Below are positions 2,772 to 58,210 of a stretch of DNA of 64,000 nucleotides, piece after piece. The stretch lies in IMG/VR virus record IMGVR_UViG_3300008255_000115, positions 35,193 to 99,192 of that record; one strand, 5' to 3'. This DNA is from a virus. Each line of letters begins with the position of its first letter. Positions within the stretch are counted from its first letter, which is position 1. Under the pieces are notes generated by a model that was given only the letters and a program-made list of their open reading frames with translations, was not told the origin of the DNA and did no database searches. The translations under genes were made by a program, and so were the position numbers.

Positions 2772-5700
2772 ATGGCAACCTATTTACAAGGAATCACAGA
2801 CTACATACCTCAAGTTCAACCTTTTAAACCTAACTATAACTTCTATCAGAATGTTTTAGAAAGGAAACAATCTCAATATGATAGAGGTTGGGAACAAACC
2901 AATAACATATATAGTAGCATATTAAATGCTCCTATGATGAGAGGTCAGAATGTTGAACGCAGAGATGGGTTCTTTAAAAATATTGAGAATCAAATTCAAC
3001 AACTTTCAGGAGTAGATCTATCACTACAACAAAATGTAGATGCAGCAACTCAAATATTTAAACCTTTCTATGAAGATGATAATATTGTTCATGATATGTC
3101 TTTTACTAAAAAGTATCAGACTCAAATGCAACATGCTGAATATTTAAGAAACTGTACAGACAAAGATAAGTGTGGAGACAAATATTGGGAAGGTGGAGTA
3201 AGATTAATGAATCATATTGCACAAGATTTTGTTAATGCATCAGATGAAGAAGCATTAAAAATAAGTGCTCCTAATTATGTTAACCATGCAAATTTCATGG
3301 AGAAAGCCTCAGCAGCTGTAAAAGAAGCTGGGTTTAAAATGGAATATGAATCTAAGGAAGGAAGATATATGGTTAAGCGTATTAATGGTCCTCAAGCAGT
3401 ACAACCATTAATGGATTTCATGATGGCTAGATTTGGGGATGATCCAGAACTTACTTCTTTCTATAAAGCTAAAGCTGCTTTAATGAGTTATGAAAATCCA
3501 GAAGCTGCTATCAACACATATGAAGCTTCAATGCTAAGAAGTAAAGCTCAGAGTCAAGAAGAATATGATCAACTTATAAAAGATAAAAGTGCTGAAATAA
3601 ACTTCAATAAAGCAAAAGGTATTATTAACCACACTAAAGAAAATGTAAAAGCCAGCACTGATAGGTTATTTTTACAAAAAAGTGGATTAGAAAAACTTAT
3701 TGAAAATGAAGGTATAATAGAAGGATCTCCTGAAGATAAAGCATATAGAGCTATATTAGAAAGAGAAGGATCAGCAGTTGCTGCTTTAGAGAGTGTAGAT
3801 AAACTTTCTAATCAAGTAAACAATATGCAATACACTGATTCAGAAGGTAATGTTATTTCTAAAGGTGCAATAGATGGAGTTGTAGCAAATGCTATGATGA
3901 TGAGGGACATGAGTTTATCTGCTCAAACAATTGCATATAAAGATTATAGTGTTACAAAAAAAGCTGATCAGTATGCTTTGGCGGATTATAGAAATCAGCT
4001 TGCCTTAAAAACTGCAGCAATAAAACATAATTATGCTTTAGAGACAACTAATGTAAAAAGTATACTTAAAGAAGGACAAGATTATAGAAAATTCTTAATT
4101 GATAGAGGCTATATAAATCCTTTTACAGGAGAACCTAAATATATAGATCCAGTAACACAAACAATGCCTATTCTACCTGGTGGAGGTATGGCTACTGGAG
4201 ATCCTGCAGATATTGCTGCTGCATTAAAACAAAGAATAGCCAGTGGTGCTTCATTGGCACCAAGTTCTGCAGATAATGCTTATTTGTATTCTAATGCTGG
4301 ATTTACATACAAACCTTCTAAAAATAATCCTAAAAAAGCAAGATTAGTTGAAGCAATGAATGGAGCAGATGTATATTTAGATACTGGTTTACAAACAGCT
4401 ATAAAAAACTTTCCTGAAGCTTTAAAACCAGGAATACCTAAACCTTCTTTTACAGGTAAACTTGAAGATGGTGTATTAAAATTGGATCATGAAAATGTAA
4501 CACCAGATACTAGAATACAAGAAATTATATCTAAAGGAGAAAATGGAGATGTTGATGGAGCTTTATTAAATTTTAAATTTAGTGAATTTATACAACCTGC
4601 TAAAAATATAGTTTCAACATGGACTGAACAAGCTGCTAGTAATCAAGGATTTATAGTAGGAAGTCAACTTAATAGTTTGCTTAATATAGCATCATCACAA
4701 AATGATCAATATAATGCTTTTGCATTGGATGGTATGATTGGTATAGGGAATATGATTAAAGAAAATATAAATAATCCAGCCATTAAAGAAGCTCTTATAA
4801 AGAGTGGAAGTTATGATCTTCTAAAAGATTTTCCTAATAGTACTAATACTAAAAATTTAGATCCAGATTTTTTTAGAAAAATAGCTGATAAAAGTTTATC
4901 AGAAGATATAATGTTAGCTGCAGGTAAGAGAGATTTGTTTAAAAAATTTACAAATGATCAAGGTCAACATTTTGTAAAACAATATAATAGTGAAGATTTA
5001 GTTGACATTAATAAATTAGGTCTTGTTTCAAAAGAAGAAGCTGATATATTAAATTTTAGAAACAGTCATGCACCTATGAAGCCTTTAAGTGAAGAAGAAA
5101 GAAAAGCATTAAAAGACTATGATTACTATACATCACAACCAAAAATTGATAATGATTTTAGAAGTATTGGATTAAATACACCAATACCTGCTTTAAGAGA
5201 CTTTAGTAATAAACACCTTACACAAATGGCTTTAACAGAAAATATGTATAAAGCTGCAACAAATAGTAAAAGAAATTATAATAACCAAATGATTGATGCT
5301 TCTCAAACCATGGCTAAAAGTTTTGAGAATGAAAATACAGATTTTGCTAGTAAAATGTTAGCAGAAAGCATGGTTAAAATTGGTAAGGATGGATGGGCTG
5401 AATTAACACCTTTAGGAGTTGTATATAGTAAAGCTGCAGAAAAAGCACCATTACCAGGAGGAAATAGTTTATGGCAATTAACAAAAGATATAGGAATATT
5501 TAATCCATTTGATGGTATTTATACATCAACAGTTCCTGAACTTGAAAAAGAATATATGGGTGGTGTACCAGGTTTTACAAATGAAGCTATTAAAAATATG
5601 TTATGGTCTTCTGAATTACCAATTGATAAAGCACCTCCTAGAAATCTAAATAGAGAAGCTCTATGGAATAATGTAGACTTAAGTAAACTGAAAGGAGAAG

Positions 5701-6815
5701 TAGGTGGTCTTTTAAAAGATTTTGGAGTAGATAAAAGGTCACTTATGGAAAGTGATTTTGCTACATTTACTGCATTATTAAAACATCCTACAACACAGGT
5801 AATTAGAAATAAAGATAACACCATTAACATTAAAAGTCCTTATATATCTGGAGATATTAATCAGACTTATTCACTTGATGAAATAGAAATGCATAAAGGA
5901 TTTGAAAACATGTTTGATAGAATAGAAGAAAAGAGTGGGAAGATGAGAGCTGAATTTTTAAATATGGCACAAAATACTAAAGGAAAAAAAATGAGTGAAA
6001 CTCTTATGTTTCCACAAATATCAGGAAAATCTTCAGGAAACTTCAATTATAGTGTGCCTGTTATGAAAGACATTAATGTACAAGCAGGAAATCGTACACA
6101 AGAACATGCATTAGTATCTGAAACTTTAAATGAAATATCTACAATATATAATCAAGATTTAAGTCAATATGGTGTTAAACAAGGGGATAAGAATACTTTA
6201 GATTTGATTTTAAGTGAATTAAATGATGATACAAAAAAATACTCAACTGATAATCTTATGTTAAATATTGATGTAGAACCTGTTATGGGAAATATGGAAT
6301 TATCTAAAGTTACAGTTAAAATGCATCCTAGCACTAAACATAAATATTTAAAGCAAAAAGGATTATTAGTTTATGATTCTAAAGCTAAAGAATTAGATGA
6401 AAGATGGGTCTCTCTTATTGAAGACAATGCTACTTATTATATATCTAATGGTAAAGCTAAACTTATTAAAAATACACAACCAGATCCTTATCATACATTA
6501 GTTGGTCTAGCAGATGGAGAAGGTTATACAGATGATATATTTTGGGATGAGTTTGGAGGCAAAGTTGAATATAAAAGAGTAGGTGATAAGGTACAAATTA
6601 TTCCTATATATAAAGTTAAAGATCCAGTAACTGGGAAATTAAGAGAACTTAGAATAATGGGACCAAGTGGTCCTATGGAACAACCACTTGCAGGGGTTAA
6701 TTGGAAACAAATATTTGAAATGCAATATCAGAATATTTATGAATTACCCTTTAGAAATTTAGAATCTGATGTTAATCTTAACAGGATTACAAACTTAGAA
6801 CATTATAAAAAATAA
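2772..6815 (+). CDS. Large virion cargo/ejection protein (1347 aa)
   Basis: Long helical-looking ORF within the giant-gene block leading to the virion RNAP; no catalytic motif recognised. Confidence 0.6.
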   Translation: MATYLQGITDYIPQVQPFKPNYNFYQNVLERKQSQYDRGWEQTNNIYSSILNAPMMRGQNVERRDGFFKNIENQIQQLSGVDLSLQQNVDAATQIFKPFYEDDNIVHDMSFTKKYQTQMQHAEYLRNCTDKDKCGDKYWEGGVRLMNHIAQDFVNASDEEALKISAPNYVNHANFMEKASAAVKEAGFKMEYESKEGRYMVKRINGPQAVQPLMDFMMARFGDDPELTSFYKAKAALMSYENPEAAINTYEASMLRSKAQSQEEYDQLIKDKSAEINFNKAKGIINHTKENVKASTDRLFLQKSGLEKLIENEGIIEGSPEDKAYRAILEREGSAVAALESVDKLSNQVNNMQYTDSEGNVISKGAIDGVVANAMMMRDMSLSAQTIAYKDYSVTKKADQYALADYRNQLALKTAAIKHNYALETTNVKSILKEGQDYRKFLIDRGYINPFTGEPKYIDPVTQTMPILPGGGMATGDPADIAAALKQRIASGASLAPSSADNAYLYSNAGFTYKPSKNNPKKARLVEAMNGADVYLDTGLQTAIKNFPEALKPGIPKPSFTGKLEDGVLKLDHENVTPDTRIQEIISKGENGDVDGALLNFKFSEFIQPAKNIVSTWTEQAASNQGFIVGSQLNSLLNIASSQNDQYNAFALDGMIGIGNMIKENINNPAIKEALIKSGSYDLLKDFPNSTNTKNLDPDFFRKIADKSLSEDIMLAAGKRDLFKKFTNDQGQHFVKQYNSEDLVDINKLGLVSKEEADILNFRNSHAPMKPLSEEERKALKDYDYYTSQPKIDNDFRSIGLNTPIPALRDFSNKHLTQMALTENMYKAATNSKRNYNNQMIDASQTMAKSFENENTDFASKMLAESMVKIGKDGWAELTPLGVVYSKAAEKAPLPGGNSLWQLTKDIGIFNPFDGIYTSTVPELEKEYMGGVPGFTNEAIKNMLWSSELPIDKAPPRNLNREALWNNVDLSKLKGEVGGLLKDFGVDKRSLMESDFATFTALLKHPTTQVIRNKDNTINIKSPYISGDINQTYSLDEIEMHKGFENMFDRIEEKSGKMRAEFLNMAQNTKGKKMSETLMFPQISGKSSGNFNYSVPVMKDINVQAGNRTQEHALVSETLNEISTIYNQDLSQYGVKQGDKNTLDLILSELNDDTKKYSTDNLMLNIDVEPVMGNMELSKVTVKMHPSTKHKYLKQKGLLVYDSKAKELDERWVSLIEDNATYYISNGKAKLIKNTQPDPYHTLVGLADGEGYTDDIFWDEFGGKVEYKRVGDKVQIIPIYKVKDPVTGKLRELRIMGPSGPMEQPLAGVNWKQIFEMQYQNIYELPFRNLESDVNLNRITNLEHYKK

Positions 6816-6818
6816 GTT

Positions 6819-9800
6819 ATGCCAGAGAATATTATGCCTGAAACACCACAATTACCTGACACTACAGTAGATCCTGTAGTATCTAGTACACCTAATATTA
6901 GTGATATTAAGAATGAACTGTATAGTAATTTACAGACAGACATGGCTAAAGCTAGAGATCCTTATATGGCTGCTAAAGGAGAAGGTCATAACTTAGCTCC
7001 TACAAAAGATAATGGTTTAAATTTTCAAAGATACTATGGTAAAAAAGAATATACTAAGTTAGGATTTAATCCATATATAGATAATGAAAATTACTATCAA
7101 CAAAACACTTCTGCTTGGGATGATACAATTAACTCTTGGACACAAGCTGGTAATCTATTTAATTTAGGATTCAGTACAATATGGGGTGGTAAATCAGACA
7201 GAGAAGAAGCAAGAGATTATGAGAGATATGCTAATATAGGCACTAGCCAAAGAGGTGGTGTATCTGGATTTATGAACAATGCTATGTTAAATTCTGGATA
7301 TACAATAGGTCTATTATCAGAGATAGCAGCTGAAGAATTAGCATTAGGAGCAGTGGAATTTTTTTCAGGAGGTGGTACTACACCACTAGTAGCAGCAAGA
7401 ACTGCTGCTAATGTTAGCAGACTAGGTAAACTAGGACAAATAGGTAGTAAGATAACATCTACTGTTGATAGAATAAAAGATCTAAAAAATATAGGTAAAG
7501 CTAAAACTTTCTTTGAGGGAGCTAAATCAGTAGGACAAGCAATAAATCCATTAAGAGGGACCACAGAATATTTATCAACGGTTGGTAGACAATATACTAG
7601 ATCTAAGGATACTGGAAAAATTGTTGCTTTATCTGATATGGCTAAATGGCAAAAAGGTTTTGGTACTTTTTACAGAGACTTACGTGAGATAAATTTAGCT
7701 ATGGATGAAGCTCATCTAGAATCAGGTTTTGTTAGTAATGGAATTAAAGATGAATTAATCAATAAAGTTATTCAGGATACAGGTGAACATCCAACTGCTG
7801 AAGCAATGGATGAGATTAATAAAGAAGCAAAATTAGCTTCTGATAATACCTTTGCAACCAACTCTTTACTAATATATAGTACTAACAGGTTATCATTTGG
7901 AAATGTATTTAATAAGTACATGCCAAGAGCTTTACAAAAAGCTTCAAGTAATATGGCTGGTGGTAGAGTAATTAAAAATAGAGCTACTAAGAAATTAGAT
8001 TTTGTTGAACATGGTGGGCTACTAGGTTATAAAACATTTCTTAATGAAGCTAAATATGCTGCTTCTAATCTTAAGACTATGCCATTACAAACAGCTAAGT
8101 TTTTAGGAAAGTATACAAGAGCAAACTTTGGTGAGGGTGCTCAAGAATATTTTCAAGAAGTTATTCAGGATGCAGAAACTAATATGGCACATGATAGATA
8201 TACTGGAGCACTTTCAGGAGGAGCTTGGTATAATGCTTTATCTAGTGACCAATATATGAAAGCATATAAGGAAAGCATGGACCATTTTATAAGTTCTGAA
8301 GGTGCTGAAATATTTGCATCTGGATTTGTAATGGGAGGATTTGCTGGACCAATAGCATATGCTCAACAAAATGCTGTTAAACACTTAACAAAATCCGGAC
8401 AATATGTAGTGGACAAAGATGGTTATCAAGCTGATAAGTCTGAAGAAGAGCAAGCTAAGACTGATCTTGAAAAAAATATTACTAAGTTCAATGATATGAC
8501 AGATGCAAGAAAGAATTTCTTGTATGATTATATTGAACAATTAAGAACACAAGGTTCTCTTAAAAAAGAGATGGATCTAAAAGAAGATAATCAGAAAGAT
8601 ATAATAGATCTTAAAGATATAGCTTTAGTTCAACAGCTTATGTTTGCTGATAATATGGGAGCTTATGATTTAATTCTTGACAAAATTAAAGACATGAGTA
8701 ATTTATCAGAAGATGAATTAAGAGAAGCTTTTGGAGAACAAATAGATGAAGACAGTAATTTCATAAGTAACTTTAAAGACAGTTATGAAAAGATAATTAA
8801 AAGAGCAGAAAAAGTAAAAGAGATGATGGATAACTATGATAAGTTATTTCCTGAACCTCCTTTATATGGTGCTGAAAATAGTGATTTTGAAGATCTTATT
8901 GAAGAACAAGATATAAGAAAAGCTAGATATTATACTAAATTATTAGCAATAACTAATCAACAAAGTTTGGTTAGAACTATGGAAAGAATGAGTTCTATCA
9001 TGAATGGTGTTTATGAAAAAGCTCCTTTTTGGAATAAAGATAAAACTCCACCTGCTGGAGAAATAACTAAAATATTTAACTATACAGAACTATCACAAGA
9101 AGTAAGACTTCTAAAGGATGAAATCAAAAGCTTAAAAGGATTTACAAGTTTAAGCCCTGATCAAAGGAAAGATCTTGCATATAAAGAAAAAATTTATGCA
9201 ACACTTGAAAAGTTTACAGGTAAAGATGGTGTTCTTAAAGGATTTGTAAATGGTTTAAAAAATCAACAACTTGTAAATATATTAAGAAAACAAGCTGAAA
9301 AACTAAGAACTCTTGAAACAGGTAAATCTGTAACTTATAAAAGAGGAGGTAAATCATGGGAAGGAATTATTGAAGGTGAGACAATAGACAAAAAAGGAAG
9401 ACCTCAGTGGATGATTGTTAAATCTGATGGATCTAAAGTTAGAATTTTAAAAGATTCTGATGTACTGCAAGATCCTGGTATAGATGTGCCTGATATTGAA
9501 GATACTTATACTGAACCTTTAAAGCAATTATTTAGAGAATACTTGACAATAATAGGTAATAGATACAATAATAAAATAGATGAAACTAATTTTGATTCTG
9601 CATTCCAAGATTTTAAAGATTTTTATACTTTAAATGAAGATGAAAAAAATTTAAGTGAAACTGTTTCATTTTTAATGAATCCGGAAGCTCACTATATGTT
9701 TGTTGAAAGATATAACCAGATGGTTAAGAGTAAACGCACCAACATGGCTAGTGAAGTAGAAGCTCAACTAAAAATGTATCAAGACTCTAAAGAAGAGAAT

Positions 9801-29353: not shown

Positions 29354-30193
29354 TTATCTTCCTAATTCATTTGGATATAATTCTTTAACAAAATCTGATT
29401 GAAAATATTCTTTAGTATCTATATCCATTAAGGTTATTTTACCTCCAAATCCTCCTCCTGTATCAAGATTCCATACATTACATCTATTCATGGGTACTGT
29501 TATTTTACCTTGTTTAGCTTGATTATTATCTTTATATTCAGGATAATGTTTTTTAATATTCCAATTTTGTGTAGGTGTATGTCCTATATATATTTCCTTA
29601 TGTCTTAAAAATCTAAGATTATAAGATATTTTATCTTTTACTGAATTAAGTATATGTGGCAAACTACTATGACTTGTTATTGCTAAATTCCACATGTATC
29701 TATCCCAATAATAATCAGCTTCATATTTTTCATGACCTAATCCTTTTTTTGAAGTGAATCCTCCATGTACAAAAGCTCTATTTTGGTCATCAATATAATA
29801 TAATAATTGATTTTTAAAAAATTCTCTATGAGATTCTTCAGTTATATAACCTGTTCTTATATAAGAGTTAATAGTAGCTTGTCCTCCATTTTGAGTCCAT
29901 GTTAAAAGTGTTTGACCATTTATGAACCATTTATTACACCATTCATCATGATTTCCTTTAATAAATATATGTCTATTATTAGATTCTTTTTGTAAATCAA
30001 TAAAATATTGAATAAGTTCAGCACTTTGACTCCATCCGTCTACAATATCTCCTAAGCATATTAAAATATCTTTGGTATTATCAAAATTAGCTCTTTCCAT
30101 TACTTGTTTAACAGCTAAAAAACCACCATGAGAATCACCAAGACATAAAGTTCTTTTAGCAATATTTTTTATTTCTATATTTTTTTTGTTCAT
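29354..30193 (-). CDS. Calcineurin-like metallophosphoesterase (Ser/Thr phosphatase family)
   Basis: GDSHG, GDIVD, GNHD, VHGG, GHT and LDTGG motifs. Confidence 0.9.
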   Translation of the reverse strand: MNKKNIEIKNIAKRTLCLGDSHGGFLAVKQVMERANFDNTKDILICLGDIVDGWSQSAELIQYFIDLQKESNNRHIFIKGNHDEWCNKWFINGQTLLTWTQNGGQATINSYIRTGYITEESHREFFKNQLLYYIDDQNRAFVHGGFTSKKGLGHEKYEADYYWDRYMWNLAITSHSSLPHILNSVKDKISYNLRFLRHKEIYIGHTPTQNWNIKKHYPEYKDNNQAKQGKITVPMNRCNVWNLDTGGGFGGKITLMDIDTKEYFQSDFVKELYPNELGR

Positions 30194-30316: not shown

Positions 30317-30811
30317 TTATTTTGTTGGTTTATAATTTACAATTGTTACATTACATTCCCAAAGTTCATCTCTTATTATCTTACTAACTATTGACCAGGA
30401 ACCACCTGCTAGACCACAACCTATTTTTGGTAAACCTATATGTTTTCCTTTAAATATTTTATTTACTTTTCTCATACACAACCTAAGAGCATCATAGTCT
30501 AAAGGTTCTTTTGTCCCTCCTATATGATTATTTCCTAAACCATATTGAGTATATGCATTGATTACAGTTATTAATATTTCCGGATTAATTTTTATTCTTA
30601 ATTCTTTGTAATCTATGTTACCAAGTTTATTTATATCACCTCTATAATAAGAATCTTCTAGTGGAAATTTACCACACCCAAAGCTTTTAGCCATTTGAGG
30701 AGCAATGCCTGAGCCCATGGTGCAAAAACAATTACAACCATGGGCTATGACATCAAACTTACCTTCTAAAGCAAGTTGTATAAGATCACCATCTACTTCA
30801 TTATATTTCAT
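30317..30811 (-). CDS. Macrodomain protein (ADP-ribose binding/hydrolase)
   Basis: GDL...IAHGCNC..TMGSGIA, INAYTQ and PKIGCGLAGG motifs. Confidence 0.9.
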   Translation of the reverse strand: MKYNEVDGDLIQLALEGKFDVIAHGCNCFCTMGSGIAPQMAKSFGCGKFPLEDSYYRGDINKLGNIDYKELRIKINPEILITVINAYTQYGLGNNHIGGTKEPLDYDALRLCMRKVNKIFKGKHIGLPKIGCGLAGGSWSIVSKIIRDELWECNVTIVNYKPTK

Positions 30812-33715: not shown

Positions 33716-35620
33716 TTAAAATAGTGTTAATTGTTTAAATTTGGATCCAGCTATATTTTCAATTTCCCTGTATATCATTTTTAAGTAATACTGTTCATTG
33801 ATATTATAATCTTCCCAGTTTTTTTCTTCATATTTATTAAATACAGTTAATAACCATTTTCCACTTTCTACTTGAATAGATCTACCATCATCTTTGTTGA
33901 TTTTAAATACTTTAGCACCCTGTTTAGAAATATAGTATCTAATAGTTGGTTGTAAATTTTCTTCTAAGTATTCTCTATCTTCAATTGATTTCTTTATAAA
34001 ATTCCAATTTCCCTTTATTCTTTTACCTATACAGTAATCAAATATGTTTCTATTAGATGCTAGATATGTTTCAGGGGGAACATCATTTAAAAAGAATTCA
34101 TATAAAGCTTTAGCTACAACTAAATGACTCTTATCTTTGTGTAATCCAAGATTTTCAAACTCAAATCTACCTTTACATTTTGTTTTACCATTTTTAAAAA
34201 CTGCAATATAACTATTTACATCAGCAATTACTAATTTTTGATATTCATCATGCTCTAAAGTTAATCTAGTTAGTTGTTCCCATTCTTCACATATTTTTAT
34301 GTATTCATCAATATACTCTTTAGGAATCATTGTTTCAAGACCATCTGTATTTTGCATTAGTGGAATAGCTCCTGGAATTCTTTCCATGATCATTTCATAT
34401 AACATCATTAGACTTAGCTGACCATTAATAGTAATTTGCATTGTGAATTGTGGATCATAAAGAAAACAATGTTTATCATTAGAAAGACCATATGTACTAT
34501 TAAGTATAATCTTATATACATAATTCATAATATCTTTCTTTGATATTTTTTTCCTTTCAAGAAAGAACCATTCATAAAGCTCACAAAAAATTTCTTTTGG
34601 TAAATGAGCTGGAGCCCAACCATTTTCAATAGCAAGTTTAGGATAATAACTCACAACATCTGAGGTCATAATAGTCATTGCTTCAGTTGCTTCATATATT
34701 CCACTTTCCCTTGCACCATGTAATCCTCCTAAACCAAAATCCATTTTTACTCCATCCATTCTAATAGAGTGTTTAAAACCCCCTTTAGTTTTTAGAGGAT
34801 CTATAATTATATTATGATATTTATTATATAATTCTTGAAATTTAGGATTATTAAACTTTATATATGGTAATATAATATCTTTACCAAATATTTGAGTTCT
34901 TTTAGTTCTTAAATATTTTAATTCATTTTTATCTTTTCCAGTTTTTTCTGATAAAAAATGTAAAAATAGTTCTTTTGATATTCTTGGTTCAGATGCACTA
35001 TATAGATTAATTTTATATTCTTTTGTTAAATTATTTCTTAATTTAATTTGTCCTGCACTTAATTTTAATATAGCTTTAGTAGACTTAACATCATTAATAC
35101 AATAAGAAACTATACTATTAATTTCTTCATTTGTATGAATTGGTGTATTATGATGGATTGGCATATCTTGTAAGTTAGGCCAATCCATTGAAAACTGTAT
35201 CCATTTAAGAGATGACCTTTTTGCTGGATTATCCCAATGATTCAACTTAAATAGATCAAGTTGTGGTATTTTCATTTTTCCTTCATAGAAATCTAACCAT
35301 TCTCTATTATTACTTTTATTAATAATATATTGGGCTTTCTTATAAATTTCATGAGCTAATGTGGCCCCATCTAATTTTGACCATTCTTTCTCATGTTGAA
35401 AGAAATATTCTGTAATTTGAGCATCAAAGGCTAATCCATTAAAAGATATATGCCTTTCCTTGTTATCTATATTCCTATGAAGGAATTTTATAAATTCTTG
35501 AAAATCATTTTGTAGTTCATGTATAATAAAAATCTTAGTTTCTTCTGTCCTATAATCCTCAAATACACCACAAAAGAAGTTTATTAGTGTTTCATAATCA
35601 TGTACATAGTGACTTCTCAT
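33716..35620 (-). CDS. polB: Family B DNA polymerase with 3'-5' exonuclease
   Basis: Exo motifs DYET, FNGLAFD, YCINDV; polymerase motifs SDVVSYYP, KIILNSTYG, NTDG. Confidence 0.93.
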   Translation of the reverse strand: MRSHYVHDYETLINFFCGVFEDYRTEETKIFIIHELQNDFQEFIKFLHRNIDNKERHISFNGLAFDAQITEYFFQHEKEWSKLDGATLAHEIYKKAQYIINKSNNREWLDFYEGKMKIPQLDLFKLNHWDNPAKRSSLKWIQFSMDWPNLQDMPIHHNTPIHTNEEINSIVSYCINDVKSTKAILKLSAGQIKLRNNLTKEYKINLYSASEPRISKELFLHFLSEKTGKDKNELKYLRTKRTQIFGKDIILPYIKFNNPKFQELYNKYHNIIIDPLKTKGGFKHSIRMDGVKMDFGLGGLHGARESGIYEATEAMTIMTSDVVSYYPKLAIENGWAPAHLPKEIFCELYEWFFLERKKISKKDIMNYVYKIILNSTYGLSNDKHCFLYDPQFTMQITINGQLSLMMLYEMIMERIPGAIPLMQNTDGLETMIPKEYIDEYIKICEEWEQLTRLTLEHDEYQKLVIADVNSYIAVFKNGKTKCKGRFEFENLGLHKDKSHLVVAKALYEFFLNDVPPETYLASNRNIFDYCIGKRIKGNWNFIKKSIEDREYLEENLQPTIRYYISKQGAKVFKINKDDGRSIQVESGKWLLTVFNKYEEKNWEDYNINEQYYLKMIYREIENIAGSKFKQLTLF

Positions 35621-54422: not shown

Positions 54423-55523
54423 TTATTTATCTAATCTGAAACCTACACATACTGGAAACCTTGGAACACCATCATCAGTGAATTCAAAAAATCTTATTTC
54501 TCCAGTTTGTCCAATATATCTATTTTTATTTTTTAGAATTTCTTCTCTTTCTGCATGAGAGAATTTCATTCCACATCCAAAAGTTATTATGTTACCTGAT
54601 TTATCTACACATTCACAATGTATAACACCTTGTTCTGGATTTTTATCAGATGGTACTACATTAATGATCTTATAAGTTTCATCTATAAAATCTTTGTATT
54701 TTAAAAGTTGTGAGGATCTTTTATTTACAGCATAACCCTCTTCACTGTGTCTAATAATAGTTCCTTCATAACCTTCACTAATAAACTGTGAATGATACTT
54801 CTTAATATCAGCTTCAGAATGAACTTGATATGTCGGTACAAGTTCTATGCATGCAAAATCTGCGATTTCAAGTATACTTTTTAAAAGTGTCATTCTGTTA
54901 TCAAAGCTCATATTAAGAAGTACCATATCATAAACATGATAAACCACTTTCTCAGTTTCTCCTTTTCTGTATTTTTTGATAAGTTTCATGTTTTCCTGAA
55001 AGCTTAATCCATGAGCATATAATTCACCATCAAGAAAATCAATAGTTATGAGATCATTTAGATCTTCCTGTATATGCTCCATTGTATCAATATGTTTACC
55101 TTTTCTGGAGTATATATTACCCATTTTATTTCCTAAAGCTCTCATACCATCAAGTTTAGGTTGAACATAGCAAGGAAATTTTACTTTTTTGGATTCTTTT
55201 TTGTAATCCTTTGCTAACATAGGTAATATAACATCACCATCTTCAGCTTCTTCTATTGTATCAAAGTACCCTGTACTTCTTTTTGTTTCAATTTTACTAA
55301 CTGCTTCAGATATAGCTTGTTCTTCAGGTGTTGTTTCATTGGCTTTACCAATGTTTTTACCAGTACAAGTACTTCTATGTTCAACTAGAGATCCACCTAC
55401 AACTCCTGATTTCTGAATGAGATCTGCTCCTTTTGTATATACATGTAAAACTCTTATTTTACCTGTACTATCTTTTTTATAGACCTTTTGGTCATAGACT
55501 CCTATATTTTTTATGTCTGTCAT
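54423..55523 (-). CDS. ATP-dependent DNA ligase with WGR-like N-terminal domain
   Basis: QPKLDGMR, DGELY, YHVYD, EGYEGTIIR, LLKYK, PRFP. Confidence 0.93.
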   Translation of the reverse strand: MTDIKNIGVYDQKVYKKDSTGKIRVLHVYTKGADLIQKSGVVGGSLVEHRSTCTGKNIGKANETTPEEQAISEAVSKIETKRSTGYFDTIEEAEDGDVILPMLAKDYKKESKKVKFPCYVQPKLDGMRALGNKMGNIYSRKGKHIDTMEHIQEDLNDLITIDFLDGELYAHGLSFQENMKLIKKYRKGETEKVVYHVYDMVLLNMSFDNRMTLLKSILEIADFACIELVPTYQVHSEADIKKYHSQFISEGYEGTIIRHSEEGYAVNKRSSQLLKYKDFIDETYKIINVVPSDKNPEQGVIHCECVDKSGNIITFGCGMKFSHAEREEILKNKNRYIGQTGEIRFFEFTDDGVPRFPVCVGFRLDK

Positions 55524-56304: not shown

Positions 56305-56955
56305 TTAGTTAATTTTGTATAATGCTCCACCTAATTTAAGTGAGACAATAGTTTGTAAGTTGATTTGACGGATTGTTTTCTTAGGATCTGATTCAGTTTT
56401 CATAAGAGAAGTCTCCTTTACTTTTACATATCCTAATTTAGGTGTACCTTGATCTTTAAGATATGTACAATTTATTATACGTGTAGCACCTTTTTTATCA
56501 ATAAACTCAGCTGTGAAAAATCTTCCTTTATTTCCAATCATAAGATCTAAAGCTTTAGTTTTACTAATTCTTTTTGCTTTTGGTCCTTTTGAAACAACTT
56601 TTACAGTTGGTACAGCTTTAGTTATAGGGTTTTGTGCAACATTTACTGTAACATTTTTTGTAGTAGTTTTTGGTCTACCAGCTCCTATTCTTGTTCCGCC
56701 TCTTTTACTAGTTTTAAAACTATAAGTTCTAAAAGTACCATTATCAGTGTAAGTTATAGCAGTATCTCTTGCTAAAGCATCCATACATTCACTTACAAAT
56801 TTTTGGTTCCATTTCATAGCAGGATACTTTTTTCTCAAAGTATCCTTTACTTCTAAAGTAGTAGTTTCACTTACTTTTCTTGAAAGAAGTTTATTTACCA
56901 TAATTACTATCATAGAAGCCTTTACATGCTTCTCCATTCTTACATTTTTTTTCAT
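56305..56955 (-). CDS. Basic putative nucleic-acid-binding protein (216 aa)
   Basis: Very K/R-rich; KRGGTRIGAGRPK AT-hook-like motif between two globular domains. Confidence 0.6.
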   Translation of the reverse strand: MKKNVRMEKHVKASMIVIMVNKLLSRKVSETTTLEVKDTLRKKYPAMKWNQKFVSECMDALARDTAITYTDNGTFRTYSFKTSKRGGTRIGAGRPKTTTKNVTVNVAQNPITKAVPTVKVVSKGPKAKRISKTKALDLMIGNKGRFFTAEFIDKKGATRIINCTYLKDQGTPKLGYVKVKETSLMKTESDPKKTIRQINLQTIVSLKLGGALYKIN

Positions 56956-56965
56956 TGTTTGTGTT

Positions 56966-58210
56966 TTAATTTAACCAAATAATATGTTTTAGTCTACATT
57001 GTTCTTCTTTGTAGGCTATAATTTCAGAGTTAAGTAAGCCATTACCAGCATTTACCTGTGTACTATCAAAACCTCTTTTACTTAACTCATTGTAGGATAG
57101 TACAAAACTATTTCCTCTATACCAACCATCATATATGTATGGTTTTCCGGTATGAACTTCATAAACAAGTAATACTTTATCATGATCATACCCAGTATAA
57201 TTAAGAGATTTTTTTACTACTTCAGAGAAGTAATTACCATCACCGTAGGCTTTACCTGAAAAATTAAAATTTCCAGATGGTCTAATTTTGAGACCTTGTT
57301 CAATTATTGGAATAACAGAGGTACATCTTGTGCCGTGGATTAACAATCTTGTTTCTTTGTTTTTTTGTTTTGATAACCATTGGTTAAAGATTTTATCTTC
57401 TGAACTTTTTTCTGCTGTTAATATACCAGCAATAGTGTGGTGTGTATCAGACTTTATCTGATCAATCAGATATTGTAACTCTTTTGTTACCTTACCTTCT
57501 TTCATCTTAACACCTAATACATCAAGTAGAGATTTTTCTTCTTTTTTCTTTGTTGGTGTTTTGCTATTTTTATTTGTTATTTTTTCTGCTTTAAGTTTTT
57601 CTTTCTTAATTAAATTAACTTGAGCAACCATTGCATCTAAATTATCCTGCTCTTGAATTATACATTTATTAAGATCTATATTTGGCAGCAAGTGAGATCT
57701 TGTATTACTCATATATCTTGGGATAGTCATATATAACTTAAGAAGATTTTCATTAATTTTCTTTTCAGCACCTTTTTTAGAAGGATCAATCTTCATAAGA
57801 TCATTAATAAGTTTCTGAGCTTCTTTAACTTGAGCTTCACTTACTACATCAGCTTTTACAGAATATGTTTTAGATACTAAATTGTTTGTATAACTAAACA
57901 TTTTTGTCATAAAACTTTTAGTTGTAGTACAAGTTATAATATCTAGTCCATTACCTTTTGGGGTGCCATCTATAATAGTTATATCAGGTTCAGTACTAAC
58001 AAGATGAGTCATATCCTGATAACCCTTTTTAAGTTTGGATTTATAAATTTTATCCCAGTGACTCATTGGTTTACTAGTTTTGATGCTAGTTAATTCAATT
58101 CTACCATAAGTAATATCAATAATACCATTTAATTCTTTCATCTCATAGTATTTGTTATTATTTTTTTCACTAACCATTACTAATTTTGCATATTTTCCTT
58201 TTTGTATCAT
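56966..58210 (-). CDS. Poly(ADP-ribose) polymerase-like protein: WGR + regulatory helical + catalytic domain
   Basis: WGR: NNNKYY...YGRI...KLKKGY; regulatory LYMTIPR; catalytic LLIHGT, GKAYGDGNYFS..KSLNY, GFDS, LLNSEIIAY...QCRL (H-Y-E triad). Confidence 0.9.
   Translation of the reverse strand: MIQKGKYAKLVMVSEKNNNKYYEMKELNGIIDITYGRIELTSIKTSKPMSHWDKIYKSKLKKGYQDMTHLVSTEPDITIIDGTPKGNGLDIITCTTTKSFMTKMFSYTNNLVSKTYSVKADVVSEAQVKEAQKLINDLMKIDPSKKGAEKKINENLLKLYMTIPRYMSNTRSHLLPNIDLNKCIIQEQDNLDAMVAQVNLIKKEKLKAEKITNKNSKTPTKKKEEKSLLDVLGVKMKEGKVTKELQYLIDQIKSDTHHTIAGILTAEKSSEDKIFNQWLSKQKNKETRLLIHGTRCTSVIPIIEQGLKIRPSGNFNFSGKAYGDGNYFSEVVKKSLNYTGYDHDKVLLVYEVHTGKPYIYDGWYRGNSFVLSYNELSKRGFDSTQVNAGNGLLNSEIIAYKEEQCRLKHIIWLN

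Follow-up and report, generated by a model that had tools for sequence, protein, structure and literature searches.

A phage-encoded PARP1/2/3-type protein with a conserved winged-helix partner, and its possible part in DNA-break-linked ADP-ribosylation

PARPs are central to the signalling of DNA breaks in eukaryotes and are drug targets, and we know of no biological role or substrate for their prokaryotic and viral relatives. The gene discussed here encodes one such viral relative. It specifies a protein of 414 residues (P0001, positions 56966..58210, minus strand) in a 64,000-nucleotide stretch of DNA, hereafter the window, which covers positions 35,193 to 99,192 of the IMG/VR virus record IMGVR_UViG_3300008255_000115. 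The whole record measures 99,192 bp and is estimated to be 83% complete, and the G+C content of the window is approximately 28%. An earlier note, made from the letters of the window alone, had described the product as a phage-encoded PARP with a WGR N-terminus, a regulatory helix and an intact H-Y-E triad, and the viral source of the record agrees with the first part of this description. The reading favoured here, to which a probability of about 0.5 is given, is that its product is a compact PARP1/2/3-type ADP-ribosyltransferase (ART) of a phage lineage, which would act in DNA-break-linked marking together with a conserved partner protein, a macrodomain protein and a DNA ligase.

PARPs of this kind have already been catalogued in phages, and the window copy is an ordinary member of its family. 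Perina et al. 2014 (PMC4245714) listed Cellulophaga phage phi4:1 among four double-stranded DNA viruses with PARP genes and reported their H-Y-E triads, and Iyer et al. 2021 and 2022 described PARPs in jumbo phages and counted PARP/PART among the ART families that viruses carry most often. The nearest GenBank phage relatives are gp031 of the Cellulophaga phages phi4:1 and phi17:2 (Lightbulbvirus), which carry the annotation 'poly (ADP-ribose) polymerase' and belong to the same family, PHROG 23333, with the same full-length architecture (98% query coverage, E 2e-46). The gene order is also the same, given that in phi4:1 the PARP gene gp031 is accompanied by a partner, gp030, and then by a DNA ligase, gp029; a macrodomain gene is found elsewhere in that genome. 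The two systems differ in that the PARPs are only 31% identical, that gp030 has 154 residues and no long disordered linker versus 216 residues in the window partner, and that phi4:1 is a marine Cellulophaga phage of 146 kb, whereas the window phage is uncultured, comes from an aquifer or groundwater and has a genome of approximately 100 kb. At E <=1e-3, 536 relatives of the window PARP are found in a 90%-clustered protein set, many of them named PARP by the Joint Genome Institute (JGI), and 165 clusters at 50% identity are matched at E <1e-30. At least 136 IMG/VR contigs carry such a gene, in two clades. The clade of the window has 25 loci, and a sister clade, whose PARPs are approximately 31% identical to that of the window, has at least 111 (among them L036-L115, with PARP at approximately 4001-5180 of each). 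With these numbers, and with phage PARPs published in 2014 and 2021-22, the earlier statement that such enzymes are uncommon in phages was overstated.

Bacterial counterparts are HaPARP of Herpetosiphon aurantiacus and CdPARP of Clostridioides difficile CD160, which have a like compact arrangement of a WGR domain, a helical domain that is often not called by Pfam and an ART domain with H-Y-E. Both automodify with poly(ADP-ribose) (PAR) in vitro, and the cognate hydrolase removes this PAR; HaPARP was reported to need activated DNA, and the assays of CdPARP were run both in its presence and in its absence. In a study of bacterial PARPs (PMC5966428), three conserved zones of the WGR domain were tied to DNA dependence, and the first WGR position was most often a tyrosine; the window PARP shares both these zones and this tyrosine. 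The systems differ in the enzyme that would remove the mark, given that the bacteria pair their PARP with a DUF2263/PARG-type glycohydrolase, whereas the candidate eraser of the phage is a macrodomain resembling TARG1 and BT1257. Among the human enzymes, the WGR-HD-ART core (HD, helical domain) of clade 1 (PARP1, PARP2 and PARP3; PDB 4dqy, 6x0l and 3c49) superposes on the whole phage PARP at approximately 17-20% identity. The phage protein is without the zinc fingers, BRCT domain and N-terminal tail of the human proteins and without an HPF1 or XRCC1 partner, has a shorter acceptor-loop region and an asparagine at the position of Y986, and carries a lysine-rich insert between its helical and ART domains.

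The assignment of the window gene to this family was made from its open frame, from Pfam, PHROG and PDB matches and from a structure model. Over its full length the protein matches PHROG 23333 (E 2.5e-56). The hidden Markov model (HMM) search that the earlier note had proposed as a check gave 58.2 bits for Pfam PARP (PF00644; E 1e-15, cut-off 26.7), a model matched also by all of the 45 homologues, among which WGR and PARP_reg were recovered as well. The motifs quoted in that note are all present in the open reading frame (ORF), namely LYMTIPR at residues 159-165, HGT at 292-294, YFS at 327-329 and NSEIIAY at 394-400, and to these can be added the invariant EQDNLDAM at 187-194. By phmmer against the PDB, residues 123-357 align with chicken and human PARP1 over their helical and ART domains (E 4e-11), such that LYMTIPR is paired with FYTLIPH, HGT with HGS (H862), GDGNYFS with GKGIYFA (Y896) and KKSLNY with SKSANY (K903, S904 and Y907). 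A profile built from the 45 homologues reaches into the WGR domain of the PARP1 WGR-CAT chain (profile positions 4-342) and, over residues 374-397 of the window PARP, pairs GLLNSEIIAY with CLLYNEYIVY of PARP1 (E988). Taken together, the alignments place H292, G293, Y327, K334, S335, Y338 and E396 at H862, G863, Y896, K903, S904, Y907 and E988 of PARP1. By this correspondence the catalytic triad would be H292, Y327 and E396, as the claim of an intact H-Y-E had it, and G293, K334, S335 and Y338 would belong to the site for nicotinamide adenine dinucleotide (NAD+).

The AlphaFold2 model of the protein (mean predicted local distance difference test (pLDDT) 77, predicted template modelling score (pTM) 0.73) leads to the same relatives. 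Foldseek with this model returned PARP1 WGR-CAT chains first (E 3e-17), and VIA aligned residues 1-414 with residues 548-1006 of DNA-bound PARP1 (4dqy_C; Z 21.6, root-mean-square deviation (rmsd) 4.2 A over 352 residues) and residues 90-414 with 662-1006. The catalytic fragments of PARP2, PARP3 and PARP4 were matched with Z of 18.5-20, those of PARP2 and PARP3 with 18.5-19.5.

The WGR domain spans residues approximately 5-70 (58001..58198, minus strand), with YGR replacing WGR, and is marked by the blocks N17-Y22, Y35-G36-R37 and K59-Y64. Pfam WGR scores weakly on the window protein alone (10.5 bits, E 0.67, below threshold). Nonetheless, WGR (PF05406) is called in 29 of the 45 close homologues (best E 4e-7), the three signature blocks (NNNKYY, YGR and KKGY) are invariant or nearly so among them, and the model aligns with PARP1 from residue 548 onwards, which upholds the WGR N-terminus of the earlier description. 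The regulatory helix mentioned there corresponds to a helical domain of the regulatory and autoinhibitory, HD-like type at residues approximately 90-232 (57515..57943, minus strand). It is recognized from the phmmer alignment of residues 123 to approximately 250 with the helical domain of PARP1, from the VIA superposition and from the helices of the model (residues 95-115, 125-140, 148-162 and 180-214); Pfam PARP_reg is called in just two of the 45 homologues, with a best E of 0.0011. The catalytic ART domain occupies residues approximately 233-414 (56969..57514, minus strand), and it is covered by Pfam PARP over residues 251-357 and by the profile alignment at residues 374-397. Between the helical and ART domains lies the lysine-rich insert KKEKLKAEKITNKNSKTPTKKKEEKS (residues approximately 200-226; 57533-57610, minus strand), which is variable in length and modelled with low confidence, and which could serve as an automodification or DNA-contact segment. 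As judged from the alignments and the model, the ORF is a PARP1/2/3-type WGR-HD-ART enzyme in which the H-Y-E residues are intact.

Conservation was followed in two sets, the 45 homologues and a divergent set of 112 cluster representatives, whose identity to the window PARP is 27-54%. The residues placed at the NAD+ site (H292, G293, Y327, K334, S335, Y338 and E396) are invariant in the 45 homologues. In the 112 representatives, invariance extends to N19, K20, Y22, G36, R37 and Y64 in the WGR domain, to R165 and E187 in the helical domain, and to H292, G293, G319, Y327 and Y338 in the ART domain, while E396, K334 and S335 are kept in at least 90%. From these alignments the catalytic, sensor and brake residues are judged to be under strong constraint across the phage family.

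The PARP gene lies inside the replication and repair gene block of the phage, a long run of minus-strand genes whose products include a DNA polymerase of family A, helicases (DnaB-like and other), an HNH endonuclease and the ATP-dependent DNA ligase. Its ATG and the stop codon of the preceding ORF overlap by 4 nt; 10 nt past its own stop begins the gene of the partner (216 residues, 56305..56955, minus strand), which carries no annotated function. When ORFs were clustered across the window and 25 related IMG/VR loci (26 loci), only two families were common to nearly all, the PARP and the gene directly downstream of it. The partner stands just downstream of PARP, either directly or past one to three small ORFs, in 24 of the 25 IMG/VR loci, and it follows PARP also on a contig of a metagenome-assembled genome (MAG; L029). 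The only related locus without it is L026, where PARP is split. Partner HMMs match just three of 81 loci of the sister PARP clade and gave no match in L026 or next to the PARPs of jumbo phages; for this reason the partner is regarded as clade-specific. The partner and gp030 of phi4:1 are of the same family (hhalign 99.2%, E 1.2e-19), and the former matches PHROG 33401 and 2267. This family has at least 202 members, all of them 'hypothetical', and the only precomputed Pfam domain is SWIB on one member. For 22 listed partner relatives the longest contig is equally long as that of a listed PARP relative, which suggests, as a heuristic only, that these share contigs with PARP relatives.

The partner is predicted to consist of a winged helix (residues 1-84), a disordered linker rich in K, T, S and P (residues 83-122) and a beta-barrel (residues approximately 125-216). 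The first part matches, by VIA, the winged helices of FurB, cullin WHB and Stn1 with Z of 9-10 and rmsd of 1.9-2.7 A and, by Foldseek, the BlaI DNA-binding domain (TMt 0.60). For the barrel, there is weak evidence from sequence and model that it may be WYL_2-like, to which the match to PHROG 2267 and the Atlas feature matches of the partner to WYL_2-bearing viral clusters (0.87-0.89) belong. A sequence profile of the partner gave no match in the PDB, and an Atlas search with the whole partner gave none either. In having a winged helix at its N-terminus and an SH3/Sm-like beta-barrel after it, the partner resembles the winged helix-turn-helix (wHTH)-WYL regulators BrxR, CapW and PafBC, and the PDB titles of its Foldseek matches name a WYL-domain transcriptional regulator, a DNA-bound BREX protein and a CapW bound to single-stranded DNA. 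The likeness is limited, given that the TM score to these proteins is approximately 0.25, that the partner has 216 residues versus approximately 290, and that the weak Pfam match of its barrel is to WYL_2 and not to classical WYL. Regulators of the wHTH-WYL type have a C-terminal dimerisation (WCX) extension. Membership of that regulator family was considered for the partner and rejected, because the shorter partner ends at residue 216, after the barrel, with no C-terminal extension.

Some smaller observations concern the partner alone. Extra N-terminal modules are present in some homologues, such as P0318 (373 residues), which has a SWIB/MDM2 domain (PF02201), and the partners of L004 and L017 (318-319 residues), which have N-terminal extensions of approximately 100 residues; the winged-helix and barrel core thus appears to be used as a module. 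In the linker, GAGRPK at residues approximately 90-100 (56650-56680, minus strand) resembles an AT-hook core, and the linker sequence is not conserved among relatives. One 162-nt contig from an aquifer metatranscriptome matches the partner at 56362-56506 with one mismatch, a weak hint of transcription for which DNA carry-over is possible.

The ATP-dependent DNA ligase (366 residues, 54423..55523, minus strand; Pfam DNA_ligase_A_M with E 1.2e-19, OB_2, PHROG 114) is encoded three genes downstream of PARP. The fourth component is a putative, divergent macrodomain protein of 164 residues (30317..30811, minus strand) of the TARG1/BT1257/SCO6735-like type, assigned from sequence matches in the PDB. 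By phmmer this ORF aligns nearly over its full length with 2fg1 (BT1257, E 2.4e-12) and the macrodomain protein of 5e3b (E 1.9e-8), and it also matches OARD1/C6orf130 weakly (E 3e-4). It shares the phosphate-loop motif PxIGCGLAGG with BT1257; the match with human TARG1 covers only the C-terminal 33 residues. A search of the phage's own contig with Pfam Macro at E 0.001 gave no match, which proved to be a false negative, since the gene was then found by way of a small cluster of PARP neighbours in related loci, which matches Macro marginally and to which the window homologue is 59% identical. In five related loci (L002, L003, L004, L011 and L017) a homologue of the macrodomain gene stands one to three genes upstream of PARP, and of the five PARP-phage records with a completeness of 90% or more, four have the macrodomain. 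A TARG1/OARD1-like macrodomain gene is directly upstream of PARP in 67 of 80 loci of the sister clade; the window macrodomain matches 28 members of this gene family by BLASTP (best 31%, E 3e-17), and for one sister-clade gene the match to human OARD1 extends over the full length (E 3e-24). Given that a macrodomain gene stands beside PARP both in relatives and in the sister clade, writer and macrodomain form a recurring phage arrangement, and the product of 30317-30811 is a candidate eraser or reader of ADP-ribose. No DUF2263/PARG (PF10021), ARH or NADAR gene was found on the phage's own contig (99 kb, 83% complete), where the missing 17% could hold one.

If PARP1-3 and the two bacterial PARPs with published assays are taken as models, a possible course of events can be drawn. 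The WGR domain would bind nicks or ends in phage DNA that is replicating, recombining or cleaved by the host, and this binding would loosen the autoinhibitory helical domain, so that the ART domain could use NAD+ to ADP-ribosylate itself, nearby proteins and possibly DNA ends. The partner would most likely be a dedicated target, a DNA-bound co-factor or a reader. The mark would help to protect or signal the breaks or to pass them to the ligase for sealing, and the macrodomain would take it off and so reset the system. The gene context, with its winged-helix/WYL_2 partner, ligase and macrodomain, favours such a DNA-linked and reversible ADP-ribosylation. A more specific version, which we regard as tentative and somewhat unlikely, is that PARP, partner, TARG1-like macrodomain and ligase make up a self-contained circuit of phage break signalling and repair. 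There, PARP would sense nicks or ends in phage DNA, left for instance by host nucleases or by replication, and would mark itself and the partner, the partner would read or carry the mark on DNA and recruit or license ligation, and the macrodomain would reset the circuit. If true, it would be a viral counterpart, from the prokaryote world, of PARP1-XRCC1-Lig3 repair with an undescribed family of readers or targets.

Several observations weigh against the reading of a break-linked ADP-ribosyltransferase with these three associates. The model has a pLDDT below 50 at the donor-loop region (residues 311-326) and at residues 387-399, which include E396. For this reason the triad is placed by alignment and not by confident three-dimensional geometry, and of the earlier claim that H, Y and E form a triad, the correspondence of the residues stands, whereas their placement in space around E396 does not follow from the model. 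For the partner, Pfam WYL_2 is called in three of 21 members (best E 7e-4), and the whole-chain Foldseek matches to BrxR, CapW and PafBC are weak (E 0.007-0.017, probability approximately 0.9). The ligase gene is within 6 kb of PARP in only 10 of the 26 loci, which could reflect a shared replication module. The macrodomain gene of the window phage is approximately 26 kb away from PARP, and its product scores 20.6 bits on Pfam Macro (PF01661), below the cut-off of 22. Finally, a literature search found no paper in which any phage PARP was assayed.

To the same side belong two features that bear on whether the product would be a polymer or single units. The equivalents of Y907 and E988 are approximately 58 residues apart in the phage protein versus approximately 80 in PARP1, so that the acceptor-loop region is approximately 20 residues shorter, and the residue at the position of Y986 of PARP1 is the asparagine already mentioned. 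PARP3 and PARP4 carry H-Y-E and yet attach single ADP-ribose units. Human PARP3 is also termed a mono-transferase in a preprint. With these counter-examples, the earlier proposal that the architecture and the catalytic glutamate mark a polymer-forming enzyme went beyond the evidence. H-Y-E is necessary and not sufficient for polymer formation, and given the shorter acceptor-loop region and the asparagine, polymerisation by the phage PARP is, from its sequence, not assured.

The roles offered in the earlier note, namely break signalling, modification of host proteins and manipulation of NAD+, likewise reach further than the evidence. The same enzyme could be put to other uses. It may modify host RNA polymerase, translation factors or defence proteins, in the manner of T4 Alt, ModA and ModB, as a means of host take-over or anti-defence; the WGR and helical domains would then be inherited baggage or mere localisers. 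ART families are common weapons of phages, host-protein modification has been proposed in the literature for phage PARPs, and the winged helix of the partner could be that of a transcription factor. It is hard to see, however, why the DNA-contact blocks of the WGR domain and the helical domain should be invariant in very divergent members if sensing were dispensable, and the gene is found among replication genes, with linkage to a ligase, and not in an early host-shutoff cluster, which makes this use rather unlikely. A further candidate substrate is nucleic acid itself. In vitro, PARP1-3 can ADP-ribosylate DNA breaks at their terminal phosphates, and macrodomains of the TARG1 type can remove such marks. 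The phage enzyme might accordingly cap phosphorylated DNA or RNA ends, either against host exonucleases or as a mark, with the macrodomain uncapping them before ligation, and the combination of writer, TARG1-like macrodomain and ligase would suit a cycle of capping, uncapping and sealing. This is pure analogy, given that the sequence does not separate DNA from protein targets, and it offers no obvious role for the tightly linked partner, unless as a holder of DNA; capping of nucleic acids is thus considered unlikely.

Two more alternatives concern the enzymatic activity as such. PARP hyperactivation drains NAD+ in eukaryotes, and by analogy the phage protein, triggered by breaks or constitutively active, might manipulate the NAD+ pool and thereby shut down the host, exclude competitors, or starve or pre-empt NAD+-dependent defences, a role that the earlier note had also suggested. 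The conservation of an eraser and the presence of a dedicated partner speak for signalling over bulk consumption. Moreover, no NAD+ salvage gene that would buffer the phage's own needs was found on its 83%-complete contig (NAPRTase and NUDIX searches), and the phage ligase is ATP-dependent, so that no particular link to NAD+ is visible; this manipulation is highly improbable. As for a dead or non-enzymatic DNA-end binder that keeps only the fold, the low model confidence at two active-site loops would be compatible with it. The NAD+ site is nonetheless invariant in the 45 homologues and nearly so in the 112 representatives, and since its H, G, Y, K, S, Y and E are conserved across homologues, selection appears to act on catalysis and an inactive protein is hardly credible.

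With the reading of DNA-break-linked marking, what is added to the catalogued family is a view of PARP, the undescribed winged-helix/WYL_2 partner, macrodomain and ligase as a system. The fixed partner, the recurring ligase and the macrodomain provide concrete candidates for the targets of phage PARPs and for the removal of their mark. Given that the cultured phage phi4:1 has the same order of PARP, partner and ligase as well as a macrodomain, the question can be taken straight to the bench.

As for the phage itself, at least seven more metagenome runs from aquifers or groundwater contain the same DNA, each with at least half of the sampled words. When 14 kb of the window were compared with GenBank phages by Megablast, no match resulted, and a search with the DNA polymerase gave no taxonomic placement. 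No paper joining crAss-like phages with an ADP-ribose polymerase was found in the literature search. A scan for host or bacterial relatives of the PARP returned just one truncated copy, on a MAG contig, and in 401 genomes of the phylum of that MAG, which are small, no other PARP was above the cut-off. The contig is probably mis-binned phage DNA and is therefore uninformative on the host.

Among the PARP loci, L058 (IMGVR_UViG_3300032167_003270) carries tandem PARP paralogues of 415 and 406 residues with one 185-residue ORF between them. L026 (positions 6001-7233; IMGVR_UViG_638276288_000001, 212 kb) has a PARP homologue that is broken up into ORFs of 234 and 181 residues and is probably a decaying copy.

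Next to the macrodomain gene of the window lies a gene for a calcineurin-like metallophosphoesterase (29354-30193, minus strand; Pfam Metallophos E 7e-15). It may also belong to the module, for instance as a phosphodiesterase acting on ADP-ribose or on DNA ends. A Metallophos cluster (c5) is found a few genes from PARP in six related loci (L002, L003, L007, L012, L013 and L016). Immediately upstream of PARP, five loci (L003-L006 and L017) have an ORF of approximately 540 residues. The one in L003 (545 residues) stands apart, while those of L004-L006 and L017 fall into one cluster; the member tested from it is a chaperonin of the GroEL/Cpn60 type (Pfam Cpn60_TCP1, E 3.8e-61).

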